Part shown: positions 32,297 to 56,380 of the stretch, piece by piece
Numbering within the stretch: position 1 is the first letter of the stretch
Layout: each line of letters begins with the position of its first letter
Origin: an uncultured Candidatus Saccharibacteria bacterium
GTDB lineage: Bacteria > Patescibacteriota > Minisyncoccia > Phycocordibacterales > CAIJYI01
Length of the DNA: 59,162 nt
Reading direction: 5' to 3'
Assembly (NCBI GenBank): GCA_964410165.1
Contig: CAYPFT010000003.1
Location: 1 to 59,162, forward strand
Translations under genes and position numbers: made by a program
The notes under the pieces: generated by a model
Seen by the model: the letters and a program-made list of their open reading frames with translations, nothing else
What the model was told of the DNA's origin: nothing
Databases searched by the model: none

Positions 32297-32323
32297 CAAA
32301 AATACGCAGAGCGTATTATTTTG

Positions 32324-32405: not shown

Positions 32406-32518
32406 ATGAGCAACTTCACTACGGAATTTCTCCCTCGACTAAACTTTTCTACAGAAAAGTTTGTCTGGGCACCGCCTCACCCGTTTTGTCCGACCTCGGA
32501 CAAAACATGGCTCCGGCG

Positions 32519-32563: not shown

Positions 32564-32674
32564 CCTCCTCGCTTTGCTCAGTCCGCCCAGTAGGAATTTC
32601 TCTCCTTACAGGAGCAGTACACCTTTTCGACTTGTTCATCCGCCTTTGGCGGACTCACAAGTAACGAAAAGCTC

Positions 32675-32720
32675 TTCGAATCCTAACGGAAGCAAAGCAG
32701 TTTGCTTCCTCTGGGCGGAC
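32675..32720 (+). repeat. Inverted copy of the tRNA-Lys 3' end, interrupted by a GCAG-loop hairpin (proximal unit)
   Basis: TTCGAATCCTAac-[ggaagcaaaGCAGtttgcttcc]-tcTGGGCGGAC. The real tRNA-Lys 3' end (GTCCGCCCAGTAGGATTCGAA) starts 18 nt downstream. Confidence 0.75.
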
Positions 32721-32738
32721 ATTCCGCTTCGCTTCCTG

Positions 32739-33739: not shown

Positions 33740-33927
33740 CCCTGCTTTTGTTCGCCATCCTTCTTTTCAAGCTCATCAACCCATTCTTTCTTGATGGGTC
33801 TGTAAATAGCATCGAACATCGTTAGAAGATTTATACCTTCTTCGGCTGCCTTCTCGTCGGAGATGTCCTCGCCAAACTGCTCCTTCCAGATTTTTTTGAA
33901 CTCTTTTAGTGCTTTATTGGACAGCAT
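33736..33927 (-). CDS. Small hypothetical protein (last gene of the R-M operon)
   Basis: 63 aa starting at MLSNKALKEFKKIWKEQFG. Overlaps the upstream membrane-protein gene by 14 nt. Confidence 0.4.
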   Translation of the reverse strand: MLSNKALKEFKKIWKEQFGEDISDEKAAEEGINLLTMFDAIYRPIKKEWVDELEKKDGEQKQG

Positions 33928-34405
33928 AGTATTTTTTATAAACGATGTAGCCAATACCAAATACGATTAAAGATATGCCGAGCGGTGGGAATAGATACAA
34001 GATGAGATTAAAAATGTTGTAGAAAAAAGAGATGATGGTATTTAGCACATCTACAATGAACGGAATAATCACAAAATACATTCCGAGTATTAAGCCCCAC
34101 CATATCAAATCCTTCATTTCGTTATACTTTCTCCAGCCGCCGCGTGTGCCACGATAGAGAGAATAAAGAAACTTATAGAAACCCGTAGCAAACAAAAAAG
34201 CGCCGAGTGTTACATAAACCAACGCACTATAAAATAGTCGCGGTAATAATCCTGGCGCTTCTACGGGGTTTATAGATTGCCACTCAAAGCCCTTTTCCGT
34301 GAAGAAATGCCATAGCAACACAGCCAAAGCAAAAACGACGGCGAACGCCGCCGAAAATGTAACTTCTTTCCATTTTGTTTTCAAAACATTTCGATACCAG
34401 GTCAT
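33914..34405 (-). CDS. Multi-pass membrane protein (hypothetical)
   Basis: 163 aa with 4-5 hydrophobic helices. Starts 11 nt after the PHP-ATPase stop. Confidence 0.55.
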   Translation of the reverse strand: MTWYRNVLKTKWKEVTFSAAFAVVFALAVLLWHFFTEKGFEWQSINPVEAPGLLPRLFYSALVYVTLGAFLFATGFYKFLYSLYRGTRGGWRKYNEMKDLIWWGLILGMYFVIIPFIVDVLNTIISFFYNIFNLILYLFPPLGISLIVFGIGYIVYKKYYAVQ

Positions 34406-34416
34406 TATATTGACTA

Positions 34417-37086: not shown

Positions 37087-37092
37087 ATCATT

Positions 37093-39576
37093 TTATTCGC
37101 CCCACACTTCGGCGATTTTGTTTTCTACTTTATCCTCGTAAAGCTGAATCATCCTTTGAGCTGATTCTATATGTCCCTGTTCGTCTCGAAGTTGTTGCAC
37201 AATCTGCTTCTGTGTATCTAAATCTGGTAACGGGATTTTGAACTTCTTTATTTGGTCAGTGGTAAGATTCTTAAAAACAGCGCCTATTGATTGTGAATTG
37301 TTTAGCTGCTTTTGATTCAAGAACACATAGTATAAGAACTCTGGCAGTATGTCTTTTGAAAGTTCCCTAAACCCAACAAAGCCGTCGTGTATGCACGCGT
37401 CAACATTGAGAATTGACGGCAAGCCAGGGTTGCCGCTAACCGCCATAACTACCTCTCCTTTTTTCATTGGTCGGCTCAATTTTGCTCCTTCTTCCGTTAA
37501 AAAATCAGTTTGCGGGGTAACATACATTCCATCTCTTGTTACATCAGAAATCATCAAGCGCGGCACGCTGCCCCCATAATAGCGTTTATCTCCTTGTGGT
37601 CGCGGCGAACTGCCACGAACCAATTTGCATATACCATCAATCGCAATTTCTTTCCATTCGGGACTAATCTTTATTGTTGGTTTGTGGTGCGTAATGATTT
37701 GCTTCGCACCATCAATGACTTTTTGATAGCTATCGAGTTCGTCAGCAATTTCTTTTTGAAGTTCGGGCGGAGGGAGAGGGATTTTGTATTTTGACAACCA
37801 AACGGTGCTTAAGTTCTTTTGAGCAACACCATTTGATGATGCAATACACTCATTCTCAAAGGCATCGGCGTTTAGGAGATGAAATAAAAATCGTGTGGTG
37901 ATTTTTTCGGGATTGACCCGCAGGCAAGCTACTCTTTGATTTAGTGCAGCGGGTAAAAGTTCCCTCGTCATTAGCCCAACCCTACCAACATTTCCCGTTA
38001 AAGAAATCAACAGGTCATTTTCAAACAATTCGTATTTTTCGATAGATTCTTTAGAAACAAGTGGATAAAACTTTGGGTTGTCATCAACTATTTCTCCTTT
38101 TTGAACGTTGGTTATTCGTATTACGCGGACACCTTTATTAGTATAGTTATCACTCTTAAACGCATATCCGTTTACTATGTCGCAAACATCGCCAAGTTTT
38201 ACCATTTCCCATTTGTGGTTAAAAACTTTGGCAATGTGATTATATCTATCGCCAGAAAGATTGTATTCTCCGTCTTCAGCGATTTGAGTTTTTGGAACAG
38301 CCCACGCAAACAAACTACCTTCTTTGAGCAAATGGTTCTTTTTACCTGTTCTTATTATCTCGTGCTGTGTTTTAAGGATTTCAACGGCGTGTGGTAAATC
38401 GTTGCGGTCAATTGGCTTCCGCTGTGCCCCCAAATCAAAGCCATCATTGAGAATCTTGATGAATAGAATATCTTTTGATTGTTTTGCCAGCTGGTTATCA
38501 AAAAAAAGAATACTCGTTCTCACGCCAGAGTAAGGATTGAAAACTCCAGCAGGCAAAGACACAATCGCATACAATCCATCTTCAACAAGAAGTTTTCGCA
38601 ATTGCTTGTAGGAAGTCGCGGCAGTAAAAACAATCCCTTCGGGCACAATGATACCCGCCCGTCCTTTATTGTTGAGATGCTCTAATATGTAATCAACAAA
38701 AAGCACTTCAGAGCGGTTGGCTTGCACCATAAAGCGCTTATGTGGACGGATACCGCCTCTTGGTGTCATAAATGGCGGATTTGCCATCATTACATCGAAG
38801 CGCTCATCCCACTTTTCTTCGCTTGTAAGCGTGTCGTATTCGTGGATTTTTGGACTTGGGAAGCCGTGGAGATACATATTCACCAGGGAGAGCTTCACCA
38901 TATCTGGTGATATGTCGTATCCCGCGAGATTTGCCATCAGACGCTTTTTTTCATCAGGAGTCAGGGGTTTGTTCTTGTTGGATTTCAGAATGTGCTTATA
39001 GGCGGAAATCAAAAATCCAGCCGTGCCACAAGCGGGGTCAAGGATGGTTTCGTCTTTCTTTGGGTCAACCACTTCAACAATAAAATCAATGATGTGGCGC
39101 GGCGTTCGGAACTGTCCCGCTTCACCCTGTGAGCCAAGCACAGACAGCAGATACTCAAAAGCGTCGCCAAGATTCTCGCTGTGGTCGTAAGAAAAAGTGT
39201 TTATGTCCTTTAGGAACAGGTTTAGTGTTTCTGGGTCGCGGTATGGCAAAAAGGCATCTTTGAAGACATCACGGAAGAGTTGTGGCAGGTGTGGATTCTT
39301 CGACATCTTCGTTATGGCTTCCACATAGAGATTCAGACGCTCCTGCCCGCCAAGTTTCGCATCCATCATTTTGCTCCAAGCGTATTTCTCAAATCCGTTC
39401 GTAAAAAACTGCGGCTTGCCTTTTGGCAATGATGCGGCTTGCTTATCCATATCGTCCATAAACTTATAGATAAGTGCCGTGGTGATTTGCTCTACCTGGG
39501 CTTTTGGGTCTGGGACTTTGCCAACCAATACATCCCGCGCCGAATCAATTTTCTTTTTTATTTCTTGGGTCAACAT
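37093..39576 (-). CDS. hsdM: Type I restriction-modification methyltransferase fused to a specificity subunit (HsdM-HsdS fusion)
   Basis: HsdM N-terminus (VGKVPDPKAQVEQITTALIYKFMDD), AdoMet motif DPACGTAGFL, catalytic MANPPF. Followed by two TRD-like halves (WEMVKLGDVCDIVNGYAF..., WKEIAIDGICKLVRGSSPRP...). Confidence 0.85.
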   Translation of the reverse strand: MLTQEIKKKIDSARDVLVGKVPDPKAQVEQITTALIYKFMDDMDKQAASLPKGKPQFFTNGFEKYAWSKMMDAKLGGQERLNLYVEAITKMSKNPHLPQLFRDVFKDAFLPYRDPETLNLFLKDINTFSYDHSENLGDAFEYLLSVLGSQGEAGQFRTPRHIIDFIVEVVDPKKDETILDPACGTAGFLISAYKHILKSNKNKPLTPDEKKRLMANLAGYDISPDMVKLSLVNMYLHGFPSPKIHEYDTLTSEEKWDERFDVMMANPPFMTPRGGIRPHKRFMVQANRSEVLFVDYILEHLNNKGRAGIIVPEGIVFTAATSYKQLRKLLVEDGLYAIVSLPAGVFNPYSGVRTSILFFDNQLAKQSKDILFIKILNDGFDLGAQRKPIDRNDLPHAVEILKTQHEIIRTGKKNHLLKEGSLFAWAVPKTQIAEDGEYNLSGDRYNHIAKVFNHKWEMVKLGDVCDIVNGYAFKSDNYTNKGVRVIRITNVQKGEIVDDNPKFYPLVSKESIEKYELFENDLLISLTGNVGRVGLMTRELLPAALNQRVACLRVNPEKITTRFLFHLLNADAFENECIASSNGVAQKNLSTVWLSKYKIPLPPPELQKEIADELDSYQKVIDGAKQIITHHKPTIKISPEWKEIAIDGICKLVRGSSPRPQGDKRYYGGSVPRLMISDVTRDGMYVTPQTDFLTEEGAKLSRPMKKGEVVMAVSGNPGLPSILNVDACIHDGFVGFRELSKDILPEFLYYVFLNQKQLNNSQSIGAVFKNLTTDQIKKFKIPLPDLDTQKQIVQQLRDEQGHIESAQRMIQLYEDKVENKIAEVWGE

Positions 39577-39578
39577 AA

Positions 39579-42095
39579 TTACATATAGGCGTTAAGAGAC
39601 ACGTAATCCTTAACATATTCGGGCACACGCTCAATCCAGCCGTTGAGAGCATCAAGGTCAGAGAGGGTTAGTTTTGGATTTGTGGCAAGCCGTGTGTATT
39701 CTCCTTTTTCGATAACATCTCGAATCTCGTTATCGGTAATATACGCCTTGAGATAGTTTTTAATCGGCATTACGAATTGGCTTTCTGGTTTGTTGATTGC
39801 AATAAACTTCTCAAACTCGTCTTCAAGCAATTCGTCCTTCGACTTGAAATTAGTAATGCCACCGAATACTTTTTCGATAAACTCGCGTAAGCTGATTCTT
39901 CGGTCAGCTTTCACAGATTTGCGGAGTTTTTCCAGATTGAAAAAATCTTCGGGTTTATCGAAAATCTTATCCTTCACATAACCCTCGATAGTGTCCAGGT
40001 CTCCTTCTTCGTATTTTTGTTTGATAAACGAGTCATCCTTTACTGCCGCCTCAAACTTCTCGAAAAGTTTTCGGTCAATCTTCATCCCTTCAACCCCAAC
40101 CGCTTTTTCCGCAAATGTCTTTAATGGGTCTGGTTGAGTGATGCTAATTTCGTCAATGTTGATTCCTGGCTCGCCGCCTTCTCCGCCCATCCCCGTTTTA
40201 GCAGGTAGATGCAAAACTTCGTCATAATCGTATTTTTCCTCGAAATACTCACAGTTAGCAAAGTAATCAAATAATTTGAACTTATCCTTTGCCACTTGAG
40301 CTTGTTGAACATCTCCAGCTTCTTTTATCTGATGAGAAAACTTGTATTTGCGTGTGCCACGACCCTTGATTTGGATAAAGTCGGTTGGAGAAAAAATCGG
40401 GCGCATCAAAACAACATTAAGAATATCCTCACAGTCATACCCAGTCGTCATCATTCCAACTGTTACACATATGCGCGTCTTACTTGAGCGGTAGCCATCC
40501 AAAAACTTGGTATGACCATTGAGATTGTTGTTGGCAAAACTCACTGTAAAACTCTGGGCATCGGTGATATTAGAGGTAACTTGCACTGCAAAATCAGAAT
40601 TGTATTTACCAGGGTAGAGTTGGTCGGCAAACTGGTTGAGGATTTGTGTTACTTTCGAGGCGTGTTTTTGGCTTACGCAAAAAACAATACTCTTACCCAT
40701 TTCGTCCGTTATAGGGTCTTTCAGGGCGTTTTCAAAAAATGTTTTGCAAAAAATCTGATTGGTTTTGTCGGAGAAAAACTTGCGCTCGAAGTCAGTATGG
40801 AAAAAAGTTTGTTCCTCCTCTTTGCCGTTTTCATCTTCAACCATCATTGCGTAGCCCTTTTCTGAAAGTAATTCGGTTGTAATTTCCGTGCGGGCATCTG
40901 CAACAATGGGATTCACCAAGTAGCCATCTTTAACGCCATCGAGTAGGGAGTAGCGGAATGTCGGCTCGCCAGTTTCGCAACCGAAAGTTTTATACGTATC
41001 CAAAAGTTGACGGCGTTCCCACGCTCGCGGGTCTCGTGAATTGAGTTTGGCTGGGTCAATACCCTTGAGATAATTTTTGGGAGTTGCGGTAAGCCCCAAC
41101 TTATAACCAACAAAGTATTCAAAGACGGCGCGGCTGTTACCACCTATTGAACGATGAGCTTCATCTGAAATAAGCAGGTCAAAATCAGTTGGAGAAAAAA
41201 GTTTCTGGTATTTGTTATTGAAAGACAAACTTTGCACCGTTGAGACAACAATTTCTGCCTTTCTCCAATCATCCTTATTCTCTTTATAGATAACCGCGGT
41301 GTAATCTTTTGAAAGCCATTTTTTGAAGTTTTTGTGTGCTTGGTCTTCCAATTCCAAACGGTCAACTAAAAATAAGATTCGTTTAGCATTACCGCTTTTC
41401 AAAAAAAGTTTAATGACGGCTGCTGAAACAAGTGTTTTGCCCGTGCCAGTAGCCATTTCGAAAAGATAGCGGTCATTTCCAGTTGCGGCGGATTCTTGTA
41501 GCGCCTTTATAGCACGTAACTGGTAAGGGCGTAGGAACTTTAGTGCCTCTGCATCAATAAGGTCTTGGCGCTGTGCCTCATCTGCCCAACGCGGGTCGCT
41601 TTTATAATCTGATTTTTGTGTAAGGACGATGTAATCTTCATCAACTTTTTCATCAGCTATGCGCTTTGAGTTTGGTTTGAATTGTTCAAAATGTTCAAGA
41701 GAATCTGGCGTTGGAAACTGGATTATTACTGTCGGGTTGCCGCGTTCCAAATCCCAAAAATAATGTAGGTTTCCGTTCGACAGAATGATAAAACGAACAT
41801 TGAGTGATTGAGCATACTTTCGCGCTTGTTCCTTGCCGTCGAGTGGGTCTTTATCTTCGGATTTTGCCTCAAGAACTACATACGGAAATCCCTTTCCATC
41901 GAGTAGTAAAAAATCTATGAATCCATTTTTTGTTTTTTCAAAGTCAGCTCCAAACTCATCAACTTCTTTTTTAGTAAGTTTAGTGTTCAGTTCCAGAACA
42001 ATGTTTGCTTTGCCTTTTTCATTATCAAAAAATCTCCAACCAGATTTCTGGAGTAAGTCGTTTATCTTGATTCTGGCTTTTGCTTCCTTTTGCAT
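39579..42095 (-). CDS. hsdR: Type I restriction enzyme R subunit-like endonuclease/helicase
   Basis: N-terminal restriction-endonuclease-like region (ARIKINDLLQKSGW). SF2 helicase motifs MATGTGKT and SDEAHRS, then QIKGRGTR. Confidence 0.85.
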   Translation of the reverse strand: MQKEAKARIKINDLLQKSGWRFFDNEKGKANIVLELNTKLTKKEVDEFGADFEKTKNGFIDFLLLDGKGFPYVVLEAKSEDKDPLDGKEQARKYAQSLNVRFIILSNGNLHYFWDLERGNPTVIIQFPTPDSLEHFEQFKPNSKRIADEKVDEDYIVLTQKSDYKSDPRWADEAQRQDLIDAEALKFLRPYQLRAIKALQESAATGNDRYLFEMATGTGKTLVSAAVIKLFLKSGNAKRILFLVDRLELEDQAHKNFKKWLSKDYTAVIYKENKDDWRKAEIVVSTVQSLSFNNKYQKLFSPTDFDLLISDEAHRSIGGNSRAVFEYFVGYKLGLTATPKNYLKGIDPAKLNSRDPRAWERRQLLDTYKTFGCETGEPTFRYSLLDGVKDGYLVNPIVADARTEITTELLSEKGYAMMVEDENGKEEEQTFFHTDFERKFFSDKTNQIFCKTFFENALKDPITDEMGKSIVFCVSQKHASKVTQILNQFADQLYPGKYNSDFAVQVTSNITDAQSFTVSFANNNLNGHTKFLDGYRSSKTRICVTVGMMTTGYDCEDILNVVLMRPIFSPTDFIQIKGRGTRKYKFSHQIKEAGDVQQAQVAKDKFKLFDYFANCEYFEEKYDYDEVLHLPAKTGMGGEGGEPGINIDEISITQPDPLKTFAEKAVGVEGMKIDRKLFEKFEAAVKDDSFIKQKYEEGDLDTIEGYVKDKIFDKPEDFFNLEKLRKSVKADRRISLREFIEKVFGGITNFKSKDELLEDEFEKFIAINKPESQFVMPIKNYLKAYITDNEIRDVIEKGEYTRLATNPKLTLSDLDALNGWIERVPEYVKDYVSLNAYM

Positions 42096-42098
42096 AAT

Positions 42099-42278
42099 TT
42101 ACTTGTGTATGTTGGAGCTACGTCGAATAAAATCTTGCAGGTCTTCCTCGTATATGCGCCATCTGCCGATTTTTGTCGCTTTCAGCTTCTTCGCCTCGAT
42201 ATAGCGATAGACAGTGCGCTCTCCAACCTGGAGTCGCTTTGCTACTTTTTCTATTGTTAGAAACTTCTTTTTTGGCAT
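42099..42278 (-). CDS. Small HTH (excisionase/MerR-like, HTH_17-type) protein heading the R-M operon
   Basis: 59-aa ORF not in the track: MPKKKFLTIEKVAKRLQVGERTVYRYIEAKKLKATKIGRWRIYEEDLQDFIRRSSNIHK. Its stop lies 4 nt before the hsdR ATG. Confidence 0.6.
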   Translation of the reverse strand: MPKKKFLTIEKVAKRLQVGERTVYRYIEAKKLKATKIGRWRIYEEDLQDFIRRSSNIHK

Positions 42279-42511
42279 AGCTACCAGTTATGATTTGTTA
42301 TGACTTGATATAACGAATCATAACGCTTCATAACTCTTATGTCAAAAATGTTCAAAACTGACAACTGGTTTTTTCTGCACAATTTTATTTTTTTCAGAGC
42401 TGTGGATAAGTATTCTATAACTTTCTTATACTCTTATGCACTTTGGATAACGCGCTTATACATCAAAAAACTTGTTGCAATTTTATGAACTGGTAAAATT
42501 AAATTGACAGT

Positions 42512-42724
42512 TACGTAGTTGCCGAGAGAAAACGGCAACTATCGAGCAGCAGAAGTAACGTCGCCAATACAATCGTATCCAGCTGCGATTGTCTACGTGA
42601 AAACGTAGCGCGACTCTTTCGATTCGCTGGTGGCGATAAACTTCTGCTGATGCACAAAGCCCGTTAGCGGCTTTGCGGGTCGCCTCAAAGCAGAAGCCCC
42701 GCCAAGCCATTAGCGGGTTTTTTC
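42512..42724 (+). ncRNA. Candidate structured RNA (cloverleaf-like four-way junction plus terminator); family unknown
   Basis: Nested helices. Outer pair: cagcagaagt (42547-56) with acttctgctg (42640-49). Next pair: cgtcgcca (42559-66) with tggtggcg (42628-35), enclosing three hairpins, including ctacgt-GAAA-acgtag. Then caaagccg-ttag-cggctttg and cccgc..gcggg + T7. A TGgTAAAAT -10-like box lies upstream. Confidence 0.35.
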
Positions 42725-42725
42725 T

Positions 42726-42980
42726 ATGCTCACTGTCGAACAATGTAAAAAAATCCTTGGCGAAAAAACCAAGAATTATACAGACGAACAAATCGAAGCA
42801 ATACGAGATGAGCTTTATATAGCTGCGAACCTTTCTTTTGAACATTGGAGAAAAAGCCATTGTCTGACTTCGGGAGATTCCAACACGTCTCCCGAAGTGA
42901 GCCAACGGCTCGCGCCTAACCCACTCCCTGTCGGAGACCCTGTGGGCGTAAAAAAACAGGGGGAAGATAAGCCAAGATAA
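42726..42980 (+). CDS. Hypothetical small protein (uncertain)
   Basis: 84-aa ORF. The first ~40 aa look protein-like (LTVEQCKKILGEKTKNYTDEQIEAIRDELYIAANLSFEHW). The 3' half overlaps hairpin-rich DNA. No SD. Confidence 0.3.
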   Translation: MLTVEQCKKILGEKTKNYTDEQIEAIRDELYIAANLSFEHWRKSHCLTSGDSNTSPEVSQRLAPNPLPVGDPVGVKKQGEDKPR

Positions 42981-43273
42981 CGGATTCCTTAGTTGCACTG
43001 GTAATTGTGAGGTCTCCAGCTGGAGACGCAGCCGAGCGAGGCGGTAATCCTCGCCGATGGGAAAGAATAAAAAAAATCGCCGTCCGATTTTTCTCAACCC
43101 TTTCCCTGCTCCTTGAGAGACACCACCGCGCGTGGGACATAGACCAAGACAGATACAGGTATAGACATACAACAGATACCAGGTATCAAGGACAACGGCT
43201 CGTGGGCGGTGGGGGTATGTAATGGCAATAGCAATTAAAGGTCGAGATTATTTAATAATCCAAAAATAACTTT

Positions 43274-43444
43274 ATGAGAGACCAGCATTACTCAAATAAA
43301 ACAATTAGGATGGCTGATAAAACCTGGGAGACATTGAAACATAAGCGGAAAAAATCTGGCAAAACCTGGAACTTATATCTGCTGGATTTGCTCAAGAAAA
43401 AAAGTCAGTCAAAAAGTTTTGAACCAGAAAAATCCGAGTTGTAG
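43274..43444 (+). CDS. Hypothetical small basic protein (56 aa)
   Basis: MRDQHYSNKTIRMADKTWETLKHKRKKSGKTWNLYLLDLLKKK... Possibly a ribbon-helix-helix-like DNA binder. Not in the ORF track (under 60 aa). Confidence 0.3.
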   Translation: MRDQHYSNKTIRMADKTWETLKHKRKKSGKTWNLYLLDLLKKKSQSKSFEPEKSEL

Positions 43445-43831
43445 AGGGCATCCCCGCCGCCTTCAGAAGGGTTAAAAGGAGAACTACGACCACCCAAATG
43501 TGGTTTTACGCAAAAATAGTAAGGGATTAGAAGGGTCTATACCTCTACAAGCCATCACGGTATAACGCGGAATAACCCTTGTAATACGTGTCTGTGTAGG
43601 CAAGAGGAGAATTACTACCCCAGACGTGGAAAGCCCAGAAATAAAAACAGCCCTCGTGGGGCAATGGCATTAAATAGACATTTTATTTCGTTCACTCGAA
43701 TCAAATACAAACTTTCACTTACAAACTAATCATAGCAAAGCTACCCACTGCGTCAAGTGGATAACTTATACAAACTTTCAGCTCATCCTACCGCATTAAA
43801 TGTCTATTAAGAGAAACGCCAACAAAAAATT

Positions 43832-44050
43832 ATGAACAAGCCATTAGAACAATCCAGTCCACTAAACGCTACGAGCGAAGTCGAAACCATCGGGGTGAGT
43901 GCTGTATCAAAATCCCTTGGTGTATCACGCGCTACTGTTTTGCGTTGGATTCAGGCGAAAAAAATTGATGGTTTCTTTCGCATCGGCAGCAAGTGGCTTA
44001 TTCGCAAGATTGATTTTGATACTTTCATCAATAAAAAAATTAGCAGCTAA
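43832..44050 (+). CDS. Excisionase-family HTH (HTH_17) DNA-binding protein
   Basis: 72 aa. VSAVSKSLGVSRATVLRWIQAKKIDGFFRIGSKWLIRKIDFDTFI. Confidence 0.65.
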   Translation: MNKPLEQSSPLNATSEVETIGVSAVSKSLGVSRATVLRWIQAKKIDGFFRIGSKWLIRKIDFDTFINKKISS

Positions 44051-44060
44051 TAATAAAGTT

Positions 44061-44525
44061 ATGAACGAGCACAACAAAGAGTCAGCTGAAAAAGGAGGTC
44101 ATTATTTCAAATACGTTATAGGCATTCTGTTTTTAGCTTTTGTAAGTAGTTTAATATCGCTTGCCTTACTGGATACTTTGGGATATGAGGACATCTCTAT
44201 TTACGTCCTCTGGGGAATCTGGGTAGTGATTTTATCTCTTTATTGCTGGAATGCAGAGCCAGAAAAATACCCGCAATATACGGAGACCCCGTGGGAAGCA
44301 AGGGCAAGGTATGTTGGAGAACTTTGTATCTATACTTTTTTTGGATTCTTGGGCACTATCGGGTCGCTGGCTGTATTGGGAATGTTGCTGCAATGGATTT
44401 TAGAAATAGACATCAGTGAAATGGGAAATACTTATCGTCTTATTTTCCTTGCTTGGGGCGGGTGGATAATAGGGTTGCACATATGGTTTAAGGAGCAGGA
44501 AAAAAGGAAATCTCAAAAACAATGA
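44061..44525 (+). CDS. Membrane protein (hypothetical)
   Basis: 154 aa starting at MNEHNKESAEKGGHYF, with 4 hydrophobic helices. Its stop overlaps the recombinase start (ATGA). Confidence 0.5.
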   Translation: MNEHNKESAEKGGHYFKYVIGILFLAFVSSLISLALLDTLGYEDISIYVLWGIWVVILSLYCWNAEPEKYPQYTETPWEARARYVGELCIYTFFGFLGTIGSLAVLGMLLQWILEIDISEMGNTYRLIFLAWGGWIIGLHIWFKEQEKRKSQKQ

Positions 44526-45412
44526 GTAACTACATCACACAATTTTTACATTACCTTGCCGTTGAACGCGCCTTCTCGCCGCGAACTATTGCCGCATACC
44601 AACACGACTTGGATAAGTTCGAGGAGTTTTTAATGACTGAAAACAAAACGGACATTATCCATATTACAAAGGAAGATGTGCGCCACTTTTTATCGCAACA
44701 AGCCAAAACAAACGGAGCTGTTACGCGTGCCCGCAAACTTTCTTCAATAAAATCTTTTTTCAAATACCTTGGACACGAGGGAGTTATTGCTGCAAACCCT
44801 GTAAGCGACATAGAAGCTCCGAAGTTACCAGAAAAAGAACCCTCTTATCTTACAGAGATTGAATACCGAGACCTTATATCAGCAGTCAGATTCAAAGCAA
44901 CGCCATACTACCTTCCGCGTGATATGGCTATCGTTATCTTGTTCTTGGGCACTGGTATTCGTTTGTCAGAACTTGTTGGATTGACACTGGATAGAGTAAA
45001 TCTTGAGGGCAACGACAGAAACATCATAGTGAAAGGCAAGGGCAACAAAGAGCGAACTATTCCTCTAACAAATGAGGTTGTAAATGTTCTTCGGCAGTAT
45101 TTGAAGGAACGTCGAGATGTAGCAAGTAACCATCTCTTCATAAGTCGGTTCGATGATGAGCTTCACGCCCGTAGCGTATACGGTCTCGTAAAGAAATACC
45201 TAAAAGTCGCTGACATCAAAAAGAACAAAGCGGCAGTTCATACACTACGCCACACATTCGGCGCATCTCTTTTGAACAGTGGAGCTAACCTTGTAGTTAT
45301 TCAAGAGCTTTTAGGGCATAAAAAGCTGGAAACCACCAGACGTTATTTGCATATCAATAACGTTGACCTACGTAACGCGGTAGATAAATTAGTTTTGAAC
45401 AAACCACAATGA
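44522..45412 (+). CDS. Tyrosine recombinase/integrase (XerC/XerD-like)
   Basis: 296 aa with an N-terminal SAM-like core-binding domain. Catalytic-domain motifs GTGIRLSEL, HTLRHTFG, LLGHKKLETTRRYLH. Confidence 0.85.
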   Translation: MSNYITQFLHYLAVERAFSPRTIAAYQHDLDKFEEFLMTENKTDIIHITKEDVRHFLSQQAKTNGAVTRARKLSSIKSFFKYLGHEGVIAANPVSDIEAPKLPEKEPSYLTEIEYRDLISAVRFKATPYYLPRDMAIVILFLGTGIRLSELVGLTLDRVNLEGNDRNIIVKGKGNKERTIPLTNEVVNVLRQYLKERRDVASNHLFISRFDDELHARSVYGLVKKYLKVADIKKNKAAVHTLRHTFGASLLNSGANLVVIQELLGHKKLETTRRYLHINNVDLRNAVDKLVLNKPQ

Positions 45413-47057
45413 GCCACACACCGACAAAACCAAAAGCAATAATTTACCTGCGAGTATCCTCGAAGGAGCAGCTCAAGGGTAAAAGTATGGAAACCCAAAA
45501 AGCCGACTGTAAAAAATACTGTGCAGAGCAAGGGTTTGAGGTTGTAGAGATTTTCATAGAGGAAGGAGAATCTGCAAAGAACGATGACAGAACCCAACTG
45601 CAACGCTTGCTGGCATACTGCCGAGAACACAAAAAACAAATCAGTTATCTTGTTATTTGGAAGGTTGACAGGTTAGCAAGAAACATCGGCGATTTCTACG
45701 AAATACAAAAAACCTTAATGGCGCACGGAGTAGTTATTCATTCCGCTACTGAAACAGGCATCAATGGAGAAGGTATTACCGCCGAAGTAATGACGGGATT
45801 TCTCGCTATATTCGCCCGCATAGACAATAAGATAAAATCCGATAGAAGCAGAACTAATTTGCGGGCGCTATTACGCTCTGGCATATACCCCTTATCCCCT
45901 CCGCTCGGTTACATTTCGAGACAAAATAAAAAGCACTCGCAAAAGAAACGGCTTCCAGACCCCATAGATGAGGAGCGATTTTTCATAATCCAGCGCGGGT
46001 TAAAAGAGTTCTCCACGGGAATACACACGGTGAAAAGTTTGACGATGAGATTTAGGGAATTGGAGCTGACTTCTCGCACTGGTAAAAAAATCTATCCTCA
46101 AATGGTGGATGTGATGCTCACAAACGTATTCTATGCTGGTTGGATTGAAGATAAGCACTGGACACCAGAAGATTTACCAGATGAGAAACTTGTTAGAGGT
46201 CTACATACCCCAGCGATTACGCTTGAGGAGTTTCAAAAAAACCAGCTCATTAAAGCTGGACGTTCAGTGAATGCGAAACCACGCTCACGAGCCAATCCAG
46301 ATTTTCCCTTACGTGATTTTGCACGATGCTACGAGTGTAAAGGCACTCTGACGGGCAGCTGGTCTCGTGGACACGGCGGGCGATATGCCTATTATCACTG
46401 CAAAAATAGAAAGTGTGCCCGCTATGGGAAAGGAAACTCAAAAACAGACGTTGAAAAATCTTTTATTACTTTACTTGAAAAAGTAGCGCCAACGGAAGTT
46501 GCTCTTACTCTTTTCAAAGAAATTGCCCTGGATGTTTGGGAAACAAATCGCAAGGCACTCAATGCTGATGGTGAGCGCCACGAAAAGAAGATTGCGGAGA
46601 TAAAAACTCAAATCGCCGAATTGATTACAATGCGAGGTCGTGGTCTTATCACTGATGAGCAATTACTGGAAGGGAAACAGCCGTTGGAAGAGGCAAAAAT
46701 CATAGCCCAGCTTGCTCTCAATGAAACTCGTATCGAGGAATGGGACATTGAAGCTGCCATTAGCTACGCAACGCAGTTTATGCGTGATTTGCCGCGGCAA
46801 TGGTTGGATTACTCGCTTGAAAACAAGCAAAGGTTCCAACAAATGGCATTTCCAGAAGGAGTTATTTACGAAAAGGAAAAAGTTTGTCGAACCCAAAAGT
46901 TAGGGCTTATTTACGAACTTTTGCAGGGCGTTGATACCCCTAATTTTGATTTGGTGCCCGGGGCGGGAGTCGAACCCGCAAGAGCTTATGCCCACGACAT
47001 TTTAAGTGTCGCGTGTCTACCAATTTCACCACTCGGGCATTCATTATCTCAAACTTG

Positions 47058-47058
<1 letters not shown>
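45409..47058 (+). CDS. Large serine recombinase; the annotated 3' end runs antisense through tRNA-Leu(UAA)
   Basis: Resolvase-type N-terminus (AIIYLRVSSKEQ ... VDRLARN), recombinase domain, zinc ribbon CYECKG...HCKNRKC, coiled coil. The last ~36 codons are the antisense translation of the tRNA gene. Confidence 0.8.
46952..47038 (-). tRNA. tRNA-Leu (anticodon TAA), 3' CCA encoded
   Basis: GCCCGAGTGGTGAAATTGGTAGACAC..CTTAAAA..long variable arm..GGTTCGACTCCCGCCCCGGGCACCA, 87 nt. Confidence 0.9.
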
Positions 47059-52723: not shown

Positions 52724-52746
52724 TTTTTTGTCAGCAGATTATTAGT

Positions 52747-52882
52747 TGCGGGACTAGGAACTCGCCCCATTGCGGGGCGGGGATTTTTTGCCTCGCTTTG
52801 CTCAGCATAAAAAATCCCTTCGAGCCCTAGGCGGAAGTGAAGCAGTTCACTTCCTTCCCGCAGGAAAAAACTTCGTTTTTTA
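52747..52882. repeat. tRNA-Gln trailer unit: a direct copy and a hairpin-split inverted copy of the tRNA-Gln 3' end
   Basis: tgcgggactagg (52747-58) equals 52884-95. Hairpins cgcccc-attgc-ggggcg and gggatttttt..CTCGCTTTGCTC..aaaaaatccc. Then TTCGAGCCCTAG-gc-[ggaagtgaaGCAGttcacttcc]-t-TCCCGCAG (52819-63). Confidence 0.75.
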
Positions 52883-52953
52883 CTGCGGGACTAGGGCTCG
52901 AACCTAGATACTCAGGACCAAAACCTGATGTCCTACCATTAGACGATCCCGCA
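52883..52953 (-). tRNA. tRNA-Gln (anticodon TTG)
   Basis: TGCGGGA/TCCCGCA acceptor (U1:A72, as in bacterial tRNA-Gln), anticodon loop TTTTGGT, T-loop TTCGAGC, 71 nt. No encoded CCA. Confidence 0.9.
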
Positions 52954-53122
52954 ATGAATTTTTTACAAAGTTCTCGTCTTCACAATGAGGCGTCCGTTTT
53001 TGCGACTTCACTCGAACCTACTTTATCAAAAATTCCTGAATGACGAAAGCCCCGCCACCGCCTCGCTCCGCTCGGCAACCCCAAAGAAGTTCTGGGCAGT
53101 GTGGCGGGGCTTTAATGCGGAC

Positions 53123-53159
53123 TCGTCTGTATCCCCGCCCGCAGGGTCTGGGGAGGAAT
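53123..53159. repeat. Left 37-bp inverted repeat of the cassette
   Basis: ctcgtctgtatccccgcccgcagggtctggggaggaat is the exact reverse complement of 56129-56165. An imperfect extension (tgcggactcgtct) mimics the tRNA-Gln 5' end. Confidence 0.8.
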
Positions 53160-53176
53160 GCGGGCGGGGGGTTGCT

Positions 53177-54229
53177 TCAATTTTTCGATTCTGCGAATTT
53201 CAAAATGTATGGATAAACTTCCGCGATTTCACCCATCGTTGATTTGTAGAGGTGTTGAGATTCTACATCGTTGCTCCCAAGATTGAGGTACTTGTATCCA
53301 AGAAGTTTGGCGCGCGCCGCCAAACTGAAAAATTGATATTGGATAAGTCCCTCGTACTCAACATCGCAAAAACTGGCATTTACCGCCAAGCAATTTTGAT
53401 TGATCGGGTATGCCGACGTAAACGCAACAGGTCGGTTATTAAAAAATGTTATATACGCAATTATATTTTCATTATCAACTTTATCAGCGTACTCGTCAAT
53501 GAAATGTGGGTAGTAGACACCACCCATCCACTTTTTAATCTCTTTTACATCGGCACCCTTTTCAAACTGCTTGGCGGTTCTTTCTGCTATATCTGAACTC
53601 CACCGGTCTACCAGTTCACGAAATGACTCTTGTAAATTTTTTGTAAGACTTCTCTCTTGCGCCTCGTATTCTCCAAAAAATATTTTCCTCTTGATTTTTC
53701 GTATGTGATTTCTAAAGCTATCCATCTTCACACTCGGAACAAAACCAAATGTGGCCTTGATTATGTCGTCAACGCTACAAACGATTTCAGGATATTTGTC
53801 ATCATCAAGTTTCTTAAAATCCGTATTGCCGCTAGAAGGCACTTCCTGAAAACAATTTTTGAGCAAATAATCTTTGTTTTCATCACTGTATATTTTCTTC
53901 GCAAAAATCTCTTGTCCCAAAACTCCTGAAAGCTCTTTTGCTAAAAACGGAACACTTTGAATTGCATTAACGCCAAGCGGTAGAAAAATATAATTCGGTA
54001 CGGTTTTGCCCCAATTCGGAGCGATAGTAATAAGGTGTTCTTTTTTCTTATCGAAATACTTAATGCCTCGTCCGTTTGATATTTGCTTGATGAAAACCCA
54101 ACTGCGTGAATAGTGATAGGGATATTTCTTCCCTTCGGATTTCAAAAACTCCTCATACAATGTCTTGTCAGAGTCAGTGATTTTTGAGCAGTTTGGTATT
54201 GAGGAAATTATTTTTTCTATAGTATCCAT
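53177..54229 (-). CDS. Putative aminoacyl-tRNA-dependent transferase (DUF2156/LPG-synthase-C or FemXAB-like GNAT fold; tentative)
   Basis: 350 aa. The pattern resembles DUF2156: YSRSWVFIKQ..., MDSFRNHIRKIKRK..., ELVDRWSSD..., and a C-terminal YLNLGSNDVESQHLYKSTMG (compare the NLG/DLGG motif). Assignment is from memory of family motifs, not a search. Confidence 0.4.
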   Translation of the reverse strand: MDTIEKIISSIPNCSKITDSDKTLYEEFLKSEGKKYPYHYSRSWVFIKQISNGRGIKYFDKKKEHLITIAPNWGKTVPNYIFLPLGVNAIQSVPFLAKELSGVLGQEIFAKKIYSDENKDYLLKNCFQEVPSSGNTDFKKLDDDKYPEIVCSVDDIIKATFGFVPSVKMDSFRNHIRKIKRKIFFGEYEAQERSLTKNLQESFRELVDRWSSDIAERTAKQFEKGADVKEIKKWMGGVYYPHFIDEYADKVDNENIIAYITFFNNRPVAFTSAYPINQNCLAVNASFCDVEYEGLIQYQFFSLAARAKLLGYKYLNLGSNDVESQHLYKSTMGEIAEVYPYILKFAESKN

Positions 54230-56057: not shown

Positions 56058-56128
56058 TCATTGTAGCAAAATTTTCTGGTCTTTGAAATTTCGCCGAACC
56101 AAAAAATTGAAGATCGAAGACCGCGCGG

Positions 56129-56165
56129 ATTCCTCCCCAGACCCTGCGGGCGGGGATACAGACGA
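56129..56165. repeat. Right 37-bp inverted repeat of the cassette
   Basis: attcctccccagaccctgcgggcggggatacagacga(g) is the reverse complement of 53123-53159. Overlaps the right 22-bp direct repeat. Confidence 0.8.
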
Positions 56166-56184
56166 TCCCGCAATGAATTTTCGG

Positions 56185-56257
56185 AGCCGCTTCTCGGGCT
56201 TGAACCGAGGACCTACGGTTTACAAAACCGTTGCTCTACCAACTGAGCTAAAGCGGC
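56185..56257 (-). tRNA. tRNA-Thr (anticodon TGT)
   Basis: GCCGCTT/AAGCGGC acceptor, anticodon loop TTTGTAA, T-loop TTCAAGC, 73 nt. No encoded CCA. Confidence 0.9.
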
Positions 56258-56380
56258 ACGAACTTTTCCTGAGCCTACCAAAACAGCTAAAGCGGCGTGA
56301 ACTTCTCCTGAGCCTACCAAAACAGCTAAAGCGGCGTGAACTTCTCCTGAGCCTACCAAAACAGCTAAAGCGGCGTGAAA
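56248..56380. repeat. 39-bp tandem repeat (3.4 copies) seeded by the 5' end of tRNA-Thr
   Basis: ctaaagcggc(a/g)(c/t)gaactt(t/c)tcctgagcctaccaaaacag starts at 56248, 56287, 56326 and 56365 (partial). Read on the minus strand, each unit starts with GCCGCTTTAGCTGTTTTGGTAGGC, a diverged copy of the tRNA-Thr acceptor plus D-arm. Confidence 0.85.

Follow-up and report, generated by a model that had tools for sequence, protein, structure and literature searches.

Among the closest described systems are the integrative elements that recombine into tRNA and tmRNA genes at the T-loop and 3' end (tyrosine-integrase phages, islands, and ICEs). The short units described here, exemplified by one behind tRNA-Gln in the window (the whole stretch of DNA that was analyzed, 59,162 nt), resemble them in several respects: tRNA and tmRNA genes are targeted in their 3' part; the target gene is left intact, with a replacement 3' end supplied by the insert; a direct repeat at the far border runs from the T-loop to or past the gene end; repeat arrays occur; and occupied and empty sites are found in relatives (for the units, between species). 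A 2002 paper by Williams in Nucleic Acids Res reportedly describes tRNA and tmRNA 3' ends as attB sites at which a direct repeat is left. Integrative elements carry an integrase, whereas the units measure about 110–200 nt, contain no ORF, and have no integrase nearby. The units further differ in their lack of a counterpart in viral collections, in their inverted, hairpin-split copy of the target combined with a covarying folded interior, and in the use of a single conserved core at many tRNAs.

Bacterial MITEs and REP/BIME sequences are, like the units, short, non-coding, hairpin-rich, multi-copy, and intergenic, have covarying stems, and are presumably moved in trans. The fixed terminal inverted repeats and fixed-length target duplication by which MITEs are recognized are, however, absent from the units, which strictly target tRNA/tmRNA ends and have part of their sequence specific to each site.

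Integron attC sites are built from R and L boxes (R''-L''...L'-R') and served by IntI; attP sites used by Xer contain dif-like XerC/XerD half-sites. The likeness of the units to attC and to the CTX-phi attP (XerCD) lies in a structure-defined site with imperfect palindromes, and we take it to be topological only. Two further parallels are presumably of the same kind: a strand-marking asymmetry (extrahelical bases in attC, an extruded hairpin in the units) and tandem cassette-like arrays at one locus, as formed by attC-type sites and units alike. Unlike attC, the units have no IntI nearby, and the implied crossover would lie at the palindrome's inner end, in the T-loop.

Two target-matched segments flanking a conserved hairpin are also seen in guide RNAs (the H/ACA pocket; the loops of IS110 bridge RNA and IS1111 seekRNA). 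As in the units, the target segments vary, the scaffold is conserved, and target and RNA would form a three-way junction. H/ACA RNAs leave two target bases unpaired, have a lower stem, an ACA box, and a Cbf5/L7Ae context, and are archaeal or eukaryotic, whereas the antisense segments of the units cover tRNA nt 54–73 gap-free, in bacterial hosts; Rfam H/ACA models gave no match at threshold (SNORA49, 20 bits against a gathering score of 35). The IS110/IS1111 guides read opposite strands around a core dinucleotide and are adjacent to a gene for a DEDD (RuvC-like) transposase. In the units, by contrast, both halves are collinear on one continuous strand, and no DEDD transposase gene was found near them, in the window or among the neighboring ORFs of the at least 119 loci described below. 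tRNA 3'ETS RNAs (for instance the 3'ETS-leuZ sponge of Escherichia coli) presumably share with the units only their nature as non-coding RNA from a tRNA trailer; we take these sponges to differ in pairing with other small RNAs and in having no tRNA-end copies, no repetition at many tRNAs, and no insertion polymorphism.

A full-text search of the published literature gave no description of a tRNA-end insert family, and Rfam 15 (gathering score and E <=10; window regions and 12 further loci) returned only tRNA and tmRNA, apart from hits at chance level. The insert family at tRNA/tmRNA 3' ends has apparently not been described before.

The tRNA-Gln unit and its sister units

Units consist of four parts: spacer; inverted copy split by a hairpin; structured interior, of at least two flavors; and direct repeat. 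The parts of the tRNA-Gln unit are as follows, starting from the tRNA.

52882–52954, minus strand: tRNA-Gln(ttg) (ARAGORN; Rfam tRNA, 58.8 bits at 52883–52953)
52864–52881, minus strand: spacer from tRNA-Gln to the unit, A/T palindrome AAAAAAC-GAAG-TTTTTT
52856–52863, plus strand: inverted copy, part Y, TCCCGCAG; tRNA-Gln acceptor 3' strand and discriminator
52833–52854, plus strand: conserved 9-bp hairpin GGAAGTGAA-GCAG-TTCACTTCC, five copies in the window
52819–52830, plus strand: inverted copy, part X, TTCGAGCCCTAG; T-loop and T-stem 3' strand (nt 54–65) of tRNA-Gln
52780–52818, minus strand: interior arm P2, stem GGGATTTTTT / AAAAAATCCC (inverted repeat I9)
52761–52781, minus strand: interior arm P3, GC hairpin, plus strand CGCCCC-ATTGC-GGGGCG
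52747–52758, plus strand: direct repeat TGCGGGACTAGG, equal to 52884–52895 at 12/12 positions (repeat D4)

An earlier note on this DNA had read 52819–52863 as a split copy of the last 20 nt of tRNA-Gln, and base for base this is what the plus strand contains: TTCGAGCCCTAG / gc / GGAAGTGAA-GCAG-TTCACTTCC / t / TCCCGCAG, in which TTCGAGCCCTAG and TCCCGCAG joined give the exact tRNA end, TTCGAGCCCTAGTCCCGCAG (T-loop, T-stem 3' strand, acceptor 3' strand, and discriminator). The outer pieces are in inverted orientation, with the split point between T-stem and acceptor strands; the linkers to the hairpin are gc (52831–52832) and t (52855). On the minus (tRNA-sense) strand, part Y reads antisense to the tRNA and the hairpin loop reads CUGC. 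Part X is 100% complementary to 52891–52902 (inverted repeat I5, 12 nt). The spacer palindrome prolongs the palindrome of tRNA end and inverted copy, with a CGAAG mini-loop at the apex (inverted repeat I1, 52856–52871 / 52875–52890, 94% complementary).

The direct repeat, which the earlier note had also seen, is the far border of the unit, and its pairing with the inverted copy closes the unit. Its proposed role as an alternative partner of the inverted copy agrees with the possible pairing and with the greater in silico stability of the trailer-paired conformer; it is not merely a pairing partner but a repeat with its start in the T-loop that frequently passes the tRNA end.

The interior is of type 2. 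In the type 2 consensus, arm P2 has its counterpart in the CUUUUCC...GGAAAAG arm and arm P3 in the short hairpin beside the direct repeat. The loop of P2 holds the 12-mer CTCGCTTTGCTC (52792–52803; tRNA-sense reading GAGCAAAGCGAG), to which the earlier note had drawn attention. The 12-mer does lie in a loop, that of hairpin 52780–52789/52809–52818; it is one case of a looser loop motif and not a fixed word.

Sister units in the window are the following.

32581–32737, minus strand: tRNA-Lys(ctt), proximal unit; type 2 interior; hairpin 32688–32709
32413–32580, minus strand: tRNA-Lys, distal unit; type 1 interior; hairpin 32532–32553
32156–32322, minus strand: tRNA-Leu(tag), proximal unit; type 2 interior; hairpin 32266–32287
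32016–32155, minus strand: tRNA-Leu(tag), distal unit; type 1 interior; hairpin 32102–32123

Acceptor copy and far repeat are both degenerate in the distal tRNA-Lys unit. The proximal tRNA-Leu(tag) unit has a 24-nt direct repeat (D3, 32156–32179 = 32319–32342), and in the distal one the 12-mer at 32141–32152 forms the apex of a palindrome (inverted repeat I5). Five exact copies of the hairpin pattern AAGNNAAGCAGTTNNCTT occur in the window, each of them following tRNA-Leu(tag), tRNA-Lys, or tRNA-Gln; at up to two mismatches, seven matches were found against 0.47 expected, a number reached by none of 100 shuffles. The Gln and Lys stems differ at two positions, both compensated, as the paired changes reported earlier had implied. 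A unit follows three of the eight tRNAs of the window. A promoter-like site is present only upstream of tRNA-Lys, and the window recombinases (44522–47058) belong to a separate island at tRNA-Leu(taa).

Distribution, occupancy, and neighborhood of the family

Species-representative genomes were searched with an 18-base pattern of the GCAG hairpin; this strict pattern gave at least 119 loci and under-samples the diversity and decay of the family. Nearly all loci among the matches listed are from Patescibacteria, spread over many classes. Recurring at three tRNAs in the window and, by the pattern search, at no fewer than 119 loci in other genomes, matched to the tRNA or tmRNA next to it, the arrangement is systematic and no local accident, as had been supposed from the window.

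Among the matches listed, a tRNA gene lies on the opposite strand within 60 nt of 75/132 hairpin instances, and a tRNA 3' end in convergent placement within 400 nt of 92/132. The hosts (again among the matches listed) comprise about 20 tRNA identities and tmRNA; two tmRNA genes followed by a unit were verified. The hairpin flanks copy the T-loop/T-stem and acceptor 3' strands of the neighboring tRNA: among the matches listed, X agrees with the local tRNA at no fewer than 10 of its 12 positions in 56 of the 76 tRNA-adjacent copies, and Y at six or more of eight positions in 47 of the 76. The acceptor strand copied in Y is the 3' and not the 5' strand; at G-U positions the copies retain the 3'-strand base (11/11 informative cases). 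Insertion at the 65/66 junction, taken earlier as a constant feature, is that of the majority (50/76 tRNA-adjacent copies within ±1 nt, among the matches listed); in one subfamily the hairpin splits a copy of the tRNA's 3' flank.

The direct repeat was found 85–200 nt away in a third to half of the units, at times in arrays. It starts in the T-loop (about C56), often ends 1 to more than 40 nt beyond the tRNA end, and measures from 12 to more than 50 nt. The variable length speaks against a target duplication of the transposase type. At other loci, the spacer is frequently a bidirectional terminator-like hairpin.

Orthologous spacers were compared between species, not strains, so that gain is not separable from loss. 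The spacer from tRNA-Cys to tRNA-Leu(taa) measures 18, 24, or 37 nt when empty and 116–390 nt when filled; that from tRNA-Lys to tRNA-Leu(tag) measures 3 or 65 nt elsewhere, whereas in the window, where it holds two units, it spans 332 nt. The empty orthologous sites in related species mark the unit as a gained-and-lost insert and not as a fixed part of the tRNA trailer. Interior types differ at orthologous sites, and stacks at one tRNA combine different interior types; read as independent insertions, these stacks are counted in support of an inserting element.

Near-identical cores occur at different tRNAs (loci L121, Arg, and L228, Glu, 91% over 58 nt; L140, Leu, and L172, Gly, 92% over 52 nt; L133, Leu, and L188, Arg, 97% over 35 nt). 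The two members of every pair differ in their T-stem, acceptor, and repeat segments, and their flanks match the local tRNA. Acceptor copies diverge without compensation and the direct repeat remains tRNA-like; this divergence, read as decay after insertion, is likewise counted in support.

Clustering of the 1103 neighboring ORFs of the at least 119 loci showed no enrichment of a recombinase, transposase, or reverse transcriptase; the neighbors are housekeeping genes in conserved synteny. Across 2.9 million viral contigs, the strict 18-base pattern gave no match; a 16-base pattern gave 40 matches, only four of them palindromic and in a different, tRNA-free context; a loose 14-base pattern gave matches that, as listed, are at chance level. 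Two units had no match in 50,697 phage GenBank records, and a 27-mer spanning a unit/flank junction had none in metagenome contigs. Exact-protein look-ups for strain-level empty sites returned only short contigs ending near repeats.

Folding, covariation, and strand

The tRNA-Gln unit folds far better than shuffled sequences on both strands (z of −5.8 and −5.0). The hairpin (144 instances in at least 119 loci) has compensated changes at stem positions 2, 6, and 7. Compensatory changes were found in 24/33 pairs; cells are paired in 90% of cases, against 34–42% in slid controls, and the covariation score is 0.572 against 0.191, with the observed value reached by none of 500 shuffles. The type 2 helices are also supported by compensatory changes. 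Unpaired bases of the interior are in part invariant (CGGAG...CGAG, GGGGUC).

The tRNA-sense strand folds better in 52/55 type 1 units and 36/49 type 2 units, and isolated mismatches are G-U in 25 cases against A-C in 11 (p = 0.03). The strand bias is 15 against 13 in the consensus helices, and closing-stem mismatches (19 against 15) have none. As far as sequence can tell, the figures lean toward the tRNA-sense strand as the one transcribed, less so for type 2 units, the tRNA-Gln unit included.

Folding of tRNA together with its trailer, proposed in the earlier note, gave a more stable trailer-paired conformer for each of the three tRNAs than the cloverleaf with self-folded trailer: −107.1 against −86.5 kcal/mol for Gln, −113.9 against −104.2 kcal/mol for Lys, and −116.8 against −108.5 kcal/mol for Leu (all in silico).

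Explanations and their meaning

We favor, with a rough probability of 45%, a non-autonomous element whose insertion sites are the ends of tRNA/tmRNA genes and which is co-transcribed with the tRNA; target recognition is the probable task of its split antisense copy. In its favor count the association with tRNA ends, the locally matched flanks, the direct repeat, the empty and filled orthologous sites, the near-identical cores at different tRNAs, the covarying fold, the lean toward the tRNA-sense strand, and the promoter-like site upstream of tRNA-Lys alone. Read in the tRNA direction, such an element would be laid out as intact tRNA; palindromic or terminator-like spacer; antisense nt 66–73; CUGC hairpin; antisense nt 54–65; two-arm interior; and direct repeat from about C56 onward. 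Entry would be by recombination in or near the T-loop, and the element would bring a replacement tRNA 3' end, with the old end displaced to the far border, a geometry shared with integrative elements that target the T-loop; insertion at a tRNA gene end would leave behind a repeat that runs from the T-loop past the tRNA end. The element may be moved by a factor encoded elsewhere. Joint transcription with the tRNA is suggested because no room is left for a promoter of the element's own, and because some units separate tRNAs that in relatives are directly adjacent and presumably co-transcribed. The split antisense copy could act as a bipartite guide-like module that clamps the tRNA 3'-end sequence in a three-way junction. 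To our knowledge, nothing described explains why an integrative element should need a hairpin-split inverted copy of its target; we also know of nothing that explains how, on the move of a core to another tRNA, at least 13 target-specific bases come to be replaced at three sites. The lack of an enriched recombinase, transposase, or reverse transcriptase beside the units and the weak strand evidence for type 2 units also speak against this reading. The strong cross-phylum conservation of the interior and its covariation could equally reflect a cellular RNA function.

A guide-directed variant of this element, without a resident gene, seems unlikely to us as it stands. The split copy, either a single DNA strand in folded form or an RNA whose transcription starts at the tRNA promoter, would pair with nt 54–73; the partner would be the tRNA gene or its transcript, and a trans-encoded enzyme that recognizes the three-way junction would carry out the T-loop insertion. 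With every insertion, the target itself would supply new target-matched segments, and this would account for a single conserved core at about 20 tRNAs and tmRNA.

Also unlikely, in our judgment, is a cis-acting tRNA trailer RNA in which the split antisense copy pairs with the nascent tRNA 3' strand and the direct copy competes for it, the switch controlling 3' maturation (RNase Z/exonucleases, CCA addition), tRNA yield, or termination. In essence, the earlier note had this idea. Units do follow the tRNA immediately, on its own strand, and leave no space for a promoter, their structure covaries, the tRNA-sense strand is favored, and for Gln, Lys, and Leu the conformer that pairs tRNA 3' strand and inverted copy is the stabler one in silico. 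A regulator of tRNA maturation fits poorly, however, with a unit at only three of eight window tRNAs, with related species whose orthologous tRNAs manage without one, with the terminator-like hairpin between tRNA and unit at many loci, and with acceptor copies that decay uncompensated. No regulatory logic is obvious for stacked units of mixed type or for remote distal units, and sequestration of the tRNA 3' strand, unless under tight control, would do harm and not regulate.

We give little credence to the view of the unit as a small, independent structured RNA that has a function in the cell and whose closing stem happens to use the tRNA end. Such an RNA, possibly tRNA-like, could be excised by RNase P and RNase Z and serve as decoy, sponge, or protein partner, and would have spread via duplication and gene conversion, not transposition. 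The deeply conserved interior, with its invariant unpaired bases and covarying helices, speaks for this; the ends of the unit do fold into an acceptor-like stem and a T-stem-like helix, one stacked on the other, and the units are widespread across many Patescibacteria classes. The acceptor mimic is, however, the reverse complement of the 3' strand, with loss of identity elements such as G3-U70 of tRNA-Ala, and the closing helix has 19–20 bp against the 12 bp of an acceptor/T minihelix. It also decays. Occupancy is patchy across species and tRNAs, and orthologous sites differ in interior type.

Scars of integrase-mediated integration (attL/attR and arm remnants of phages or islands, the interior later lost) are very improbable, even though repeats begin in the T-loop and pass the tRNA end and the window has a recombinase-bearing island at tRNA-Leu(taa). 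The 3' ends of tRNA and tmRNA genes are well known as attB sites, where an integration event leaves the tRNA's 3' part directly repeated (PMC9897764). Independent deletions would nevertheless not produce one covarying architecture of 110–200 nt at 119 or more loci and about 20 tRNA identities. The viral contigs lack the strict hairpin pattern, the two units compared with phage records found no match there, and integrases are not enriched in the neighborhood.

Template switching during replication, at tRNA-terminator palindromes, giving a miniature inverted triplication without function or mobility, is hardly credible and already largely excluded by the conserved core: a yeast study (PMC11790251) describes the template switching by which inverted triplications arise, the direct-inverted-direct order has their topology, and the palindromic junctions at the spacer and interior hairpins would suit it, but a 22-nt hairpin conserved across genomes amid the inverted copy, the conserved and covarying interior, and near-identical cores at different tRNAs in different genomes are left unexplained.

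Some other candidates were tried and rejected: an acceptor-identity mimic for aminoacylation (in a reverse complement of the 3' strand, G3-U70 of tRNA-Ala becomes A-U); the primer-binding site of a tRNA-primed retroelement (CCA complement absent, copy interrupted by the hairpin); arms of a hammerhead-like trans ribozyme (linkers of 1–2 nt leave no space for a catalytic core); an SD-ATG start within type 1 units (ATG not conserved); and a K-turn in the GGA/GA internal loop (3-nt bulge missing).

For genome work, the units break short-read assemblies at tRNA loci, their partial tRNA copies can confuse annotation, and they are a ready marker of strain-level variation. Patescibacteria make up a large share of bacterial diversity. 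Little non-coding DNA would be expected in their tiny genomes; across the group, a module that is conserved, folded, and non-coding turns up at many tRNA/tmRNA genes. If the units are the mobile element that we favor, it would be gene-less and strictly targeted, with a bipartite target copy around a conserved scaffold and the design logic of programmable guide systems, and it would imply a trans-acting enzyme and a means of rewriting target specificity. Guide-directed insertion, if true, would be naturally programmable and a new way to choose an integration site. If the units are instead a cellular RNA, they would represent a class of tRNA-linked RNA that is both new and widespread and that could in principle sequester the tRNA 3' strand, which would bear on the maturation of CCA-less tRNAs.

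The unit behind tRNA-Gln

The unit, a folded non-coding insert behind the tRNA 3′ end, comprises the following features together with its host gene.

52747-52758: direct copy of the tRNA-Gln end, 12 nt
52780-52818: hairpin with the 12-mer CTCGCTTTGCTC in its loop
52819-52863, plus strand: split inverted copy of the tRNA-Gln end, TTCGAGCCCTAG-gc-GGAAGTGAAGCAGTTCACTTCC-t-TCCCGCAG
52882-52954, minus strand: tRNA-Gln(ttg)

Without its middle 25 nt, 52819-52863 equals the last 20 nt of tRNA-Gln exactly, in inverted orientation (T-loop, T-stem 3′ strand, acceptor 3′ strand, and discriminator). The split copy described in the earlier note is thereby borne out base by base, and the direct copy and the 12-mer in a hairpin loop are both present; the spacer between tRNA-Gln and the unit is palindromic too. 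Five copies of the hairpin pattern are present in the window, two behind tRNA-Leu(tag), two behind tRNA-Lys, and one behind tRNA-Gln, and nowhere else; with up to two mismatches, seven matches were found in the window versus 0.47 expected. No unit lies at the remaining five tRNAs of the window.

The comparison of cloverleaf and trailer-paired conformers proposed in that note was run in silico, and the trailer-paired form is the more stable for all three tRNAs. For the tRNA-Gln plus trailer transcript (52735-52954, minus strand), the minimum-energy structure has -107.1 kcal/mol versus -86.5 for the cloverleaf with a separately folded trailer, the inverted copy being paired with the tRNA 3′ strand and the far direct repeat with the 5′ strands of acceptor and T-stem; the values are -113.9 versus -104.2 kcal/mol for Lys and -116.8 versus -108.5 kcal/mol for Leu. 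The conformer in the cell would be set by co-transcriptional folding and processing. In the folded view, the whole tRNA-Gln locus would be a tRNA gene with an insert that starts in the T-loop and bears a replacement 3′ end. Because tRNA-Lys and tRNA-Leu(tag) are adjacent in relatives, the units between them are most likely transcribed together with these tRNAs; a promoter-like site was seen upstream of tRNA-Lys only.

Several other repeats were observed nearby. Upstream of tRNA-Gln are a 10-nt copy of its T-arm (CTCGAACCTA, 53011-53020), a hairpin with a 13-bp stem and the 12-mer variant CTCGCTCCGCTC (two mismatches) in its loop (53046-53113), and a GC-rich hairpin segment of about 50 nt (53118-53168) starting with a fragment like the tRNA-Gln 5′ end. 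The last segment recurs inverted at 56125-56182, just downstream of tRNA-Thr, fused to the exact tRNA-Gln 5′ end and upstream flank (gacgatcccgcaatgaatttt = 52941-52961). Directly upstream of tRNA-Thr, a tandem array (56246-56379; period 39, 3.4 copies, 96% identity) has as its unit the tRNA-Thr 5′ end (AGCTAAAGCGGC, plus strand) with upstream flank; duplication here extends to a tRNA gene's 5′ side as well. Two short-read contigs with the window's own genes (Logan SRR4343430; L240, L241) end near the tRNA-Gln repeat region, which suggests that the units break assemblies.

Among the genes, 53177-54229, just upstream of tRNA-Gln, weakly matches (34 bits) the phosphatidylglycerol lysyltransferase C-terminal domain, an aminoacyl-tRNA-using fold; its adjacency to tRNA-Gln may be coincidental. 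The 723-aa ORF at 1530-3701 has domain matches to type IV secretion coupling proteins (TrwB/TraG/VirD4-like), which is unusual in an organism with a small genome. An island of about 13 kb (33900-47058) separates tRNA-Leu(taa) from tRNA-Lys(ctt), which are close together in relatives L140 and L232 (L numbers, loci of other genomes or contigs). It encodes an AAA/PHP-domain protein (34417-37086) and a type I restriction-modification system (37093-42095), as well as two recombinases, one a Xer-like tyrosine recombinase (44522-45412) and the other a large serine recombinase (45409-47058). At its 3′ end, the serine recombinase gene overlaps tRNA-Leu(taa), which is on the other strand.

Family, hosts, and target matching

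The 18-base hairpin pattern CGNAAGNNAAGCAGTTNNCTTNCT matches at least 119 loci elsewhere in one-genome-per-species contigs, with about 17 chance matches expected by a rough base-frequency estimate; the claim that the recurrence exceeds a local accident stands, the finding being real and highly non-random. Among the matches listed, almost all record titles bear Patescibacteria names, the named groups being Paceibacteria, Saccharibacteria, Kaiser-, Vogel-, Uhr-, Taylor-, Nomura-, and Moranbacteria; a few carry other labels (Elusimicrobia, Parachlamydiales, Gammaproteobacteria, Campylobacterales, Leptospira, or Bdellovibrionales). Some of these latter labels may be binning errors, since at least one contig labelled 'Gammaproteobacteria' (L121) has conserved gene order in common with Patescibacteria loci.

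Among the matches listed, an opposite-strand tRNA gene starts within 60 nt after the hairpin in 75 of 132 instances and within 400 nt in 92 of 132. Where no tRNA had been called, two loci that were checked have a tmRNA gene as neighbour, and several further loci have tmRNA-like ends. Units directly 3′ of a tmRNA gene were observed at L186 4141-4711 (Rfam tmRNA, 124 bits) and L147 1491-1967 (92 bits), with flanks matching the tmRNA T-arm and acceptor end.

The left flank of the hairpin is TTCRANNCC plus the T-stem 3′ strand of its own neighbouring tRNA, the right flank the acceptor 3′ strand, as seen for Arg, Ser, Cys, Gly, Leu, Ile, Val, Tyr, Glu, Thr, Ala, Asp, Lys, Phe, Gln, His, Pro, Trp, and Asn; at the sole tRNA-Met neighbour (L130) the flanks do not match tRNA-Met. 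In 56 of 76 copies, at least 10 of the 12 positions copied from nucleotides 54–65 match the tRNA, and in 47 of 76 at least 6 of the 8 copied from nucleotides 66–73. Insertion at the 65/66 junction, as the earlier note had it, is typical (50 of 76 copies, ±1) but not obligatory: in a subfamily (L125, L138, L210, L217, L129) the copy consists of acceptor end and 3′ flank, with the hairpin inside the flank copy. At G-U acceptor positions the copy keeps the 3′-strand base (11 of 11, including U70 of tRNA-Ala); the inverted copy derives from the gene's 3′ strand, and a 5′-strand mimic is rejected on the same count.

No Rfam 15 family matches the units; two units had no match in 50,697 phage records, the strict hairpin pattern had none in 2.9 million viral contigs, and a literature search found no description of such an element. 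The exact 22-nt hairpin GAAAGCCAAGCAGTTGGCTTTC was observed in four viral contigs from high-GC hosts (L101 5523-5544; L261, L265, L268), within a longer stem CCCCCTCCG...CGGAGGGGG and with no tRNA on the stretch examined; the match may reflect distant kinship or mere coincidence.

Anatomy, fold, and strand

The order in the tRNA direction is tRNA, spacer, antisense nt 66–73, one linker base, hairpin, two linker bases, antisense nt 54–65, interior, and direct repeat. The spacer takes one of two forms, a terminator-like hairpin flanked by A/T or a short loop that contains the motif GA-RC-GNA-GY-GA; the 12-mer is GAGCAAAGCGAG in tRNA-sense orientation. The unit hairpin has 9 bp and, on the tRNA-sense strand, the loop CUGC. 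At least two interior flavours occur: type 1 has two arms, one with a conserved internal loop CGGAG...CGAG and one framed by GGUC/GACC; in type 2, a CUUUUCC...GGAAAAG arm is joined by a short hairpin, with GUA-type loop, beside the repeat. The tRNA-Gln unit is a somewhat atypical type 2. The direct repeat, found in a third to half of units, 85–200 nt off and at times in arrays, starts in the T-loop, typically at C56 (junction GUGAC|CGA in type 1), and continues past the tRNA end by 1 to more than 40 nt, sometimes including the whole terminator.

The 12-mer belongs to a looser motif, tRNA-sense GA-RC-GNA-GY-GA (GAGCGAAGCGAG, GAACGAAGUGA, GAACGUAGUGA), a two-base-pair mini-hairpin with GNA triloop between GA dinucleotides that caps the spacer palindrome or interior arms (window 32141-32152, 32568-32579, 52792-52803; L173, L176, L224). 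By eye, about a quarter of units have TTCTCRTCC, not TTCGARTCC, as the T-loop copy (L121, L128, L144, L148, L153, L154, L164, L176, L200, L204, L208, L226, and others), G57-A58 being replaced by its reverse complement, TC. This would give tandem G-A/A-G opposite the direct repeat on RNA and would break identity with the real T-loop on DNA.

Among 144 hairpin instances in the matches listed, stem position 2 shows all four Watson-Crick pair types and positions 6 and 7 several. RNAalifold on 17 type 1 units, aligned tRNA-sense, gave six helices with compensatory changes in 24 of 33 pairs; 90.0% of cells are paired versus 34–42% with partners slid, and the covariation score is 0.572 versus 0.191 on shuffling, with none of 500 shuffles attaining the observed value. 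Type 2 has compensatory changes in 13 of 22 pairs.

Folding leans towards tRNA-sense as the transcript strand, the better fold lying on it for 52 of the 55 units of type 1 and 36 of the 49 of type 2; the interior z-score is -3.16 versus -2.11 in type 1, and the strands are equal in type 2. G-U exceeds A-C among isolated mismatches within Watson-Crick helices (25 versus 11, p = 0.03), with 15 versus 13 in consensus helices and 19 versus 15 in closing stems. The tRNA-Gln unit folds at -60.2 kcal/mol (z -5.8) tRNA-sense versus -56.3 (z -5.0) on the other strand.

Site occupancy, portable cores, and interpretation

Patescibacteria have in common the gene order IF-2, RbfA, tRNA-Cys, tRNA-Leu(taa), tRNA-Lys(ctt), tRNA-Leu(tag), in which spacers were compared at species level.

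Empty and filled spacers
Cys to Leu(taa), empty: 18 nt (window), 24 nt (L161), 37 nt (L234)
Cys to Leu(taa), filled: 116-390 nt (L140, L222, L165, L232, L196, L123)
Lys to Leu(tag), empty: 3 nt (L140), 65 nt (L165)
Lys to Leu(tag), filled: 332 nt, two units (window)

Of the six filled sites between Cys and Leu(taa), four (L222, L232, L196, L123) owe their extra DNA to one or two clear units; in L222 an 18-nt spacer of ordinary length follows the direct repeat. At Lys and Leu(tag) in the window and Leu(taa) in L222, a proximal type 2 is stacked with a distal type 1 unit, and this difference in interior argues for separate events, not tandem duplication.

Near-identical interiors occur at different tRNAs across genomes: L121 (Arg) and L228 (Glu), 91% over 58 nt, the hairpins being identical and some similarity spanning about 110 nt; L140 (Leu) and L172 (Gly), 92% over 52 nt; L133 (Leu) and L188 (Arg), 97% over 35 nt; L181 (Arg) and L204 (Ser), 91% over 44 nt. 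Similarity ends exactly at the T-stem copy, returns in the hairpin, and is lost once more at both the acceptor copy and the direct repeat. A core changing from one tRNA to another would need 13 or more site-specific bases renewed, in three places. The acceptor copy has often drifted, uncompensated, while the direct repeat remains tRNA-like.

We give a probability of about 0.45 to the reading that the units are a non-autonomous element with insertion specificity for the ends of tRNA and tmRNA genes. Such an element would insert at the gene end, starting in the T-loop, and supply a replacement 3′ end, leaving the tRNA intact and the direct repeat displaced to the far side; it would be mobilised in trans and transcribed along with its host tRNA. 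The location strictly at tRNA/tmRNA 3′ ends, the intact tRNA with its displaced repeat from the T-loop, the variable repeat length and arrays, the sites empty or filled at species level, and the portable cores with an acceptor copy that decays after insertion point this way. Among 1103 ORFs within 3.5 kb of hairpins, recurrent neighbours are housekeeping genes (IF-2/LepA-type GTPases, RbfA, CCA-adding-type nucleotidyltransferase, YraN), and no recombinase, transposase, or reverse transcriptase is among the recurrent families.

In this reading, the units insert with the same geometry as integrative elements that target the T-loop; the classes of integration sublocation reportedly stem from Williams 2002. 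Fragments of tRNA genes originate from integration by such elements [PMC9897764]. That the units are instead cis-regulatory trailer RNAs is less probable, and that they are a tRNA-like cellular RNA slightly less probable again. Integration scars are an unlikely account of the units, and replication by-products a very unlikely one. We know of no precedent for a conserved hairpin between two target-matched antisense segments, or for the conserved, covarying interior.

Within the insertion-element reading, the hairpin and its two antisense segments may be read as a target-recognition module, because their topology (guide, hairpin, guide against one continuous target strand) resembles an H/ACA pocket. 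The features that define H/ACA RNAs, and those that define IS110 bridge RNAs, are absent from the unit. The tRNA-Gln unit is the local instance of a widespread, structured, and apparently undescribed family.
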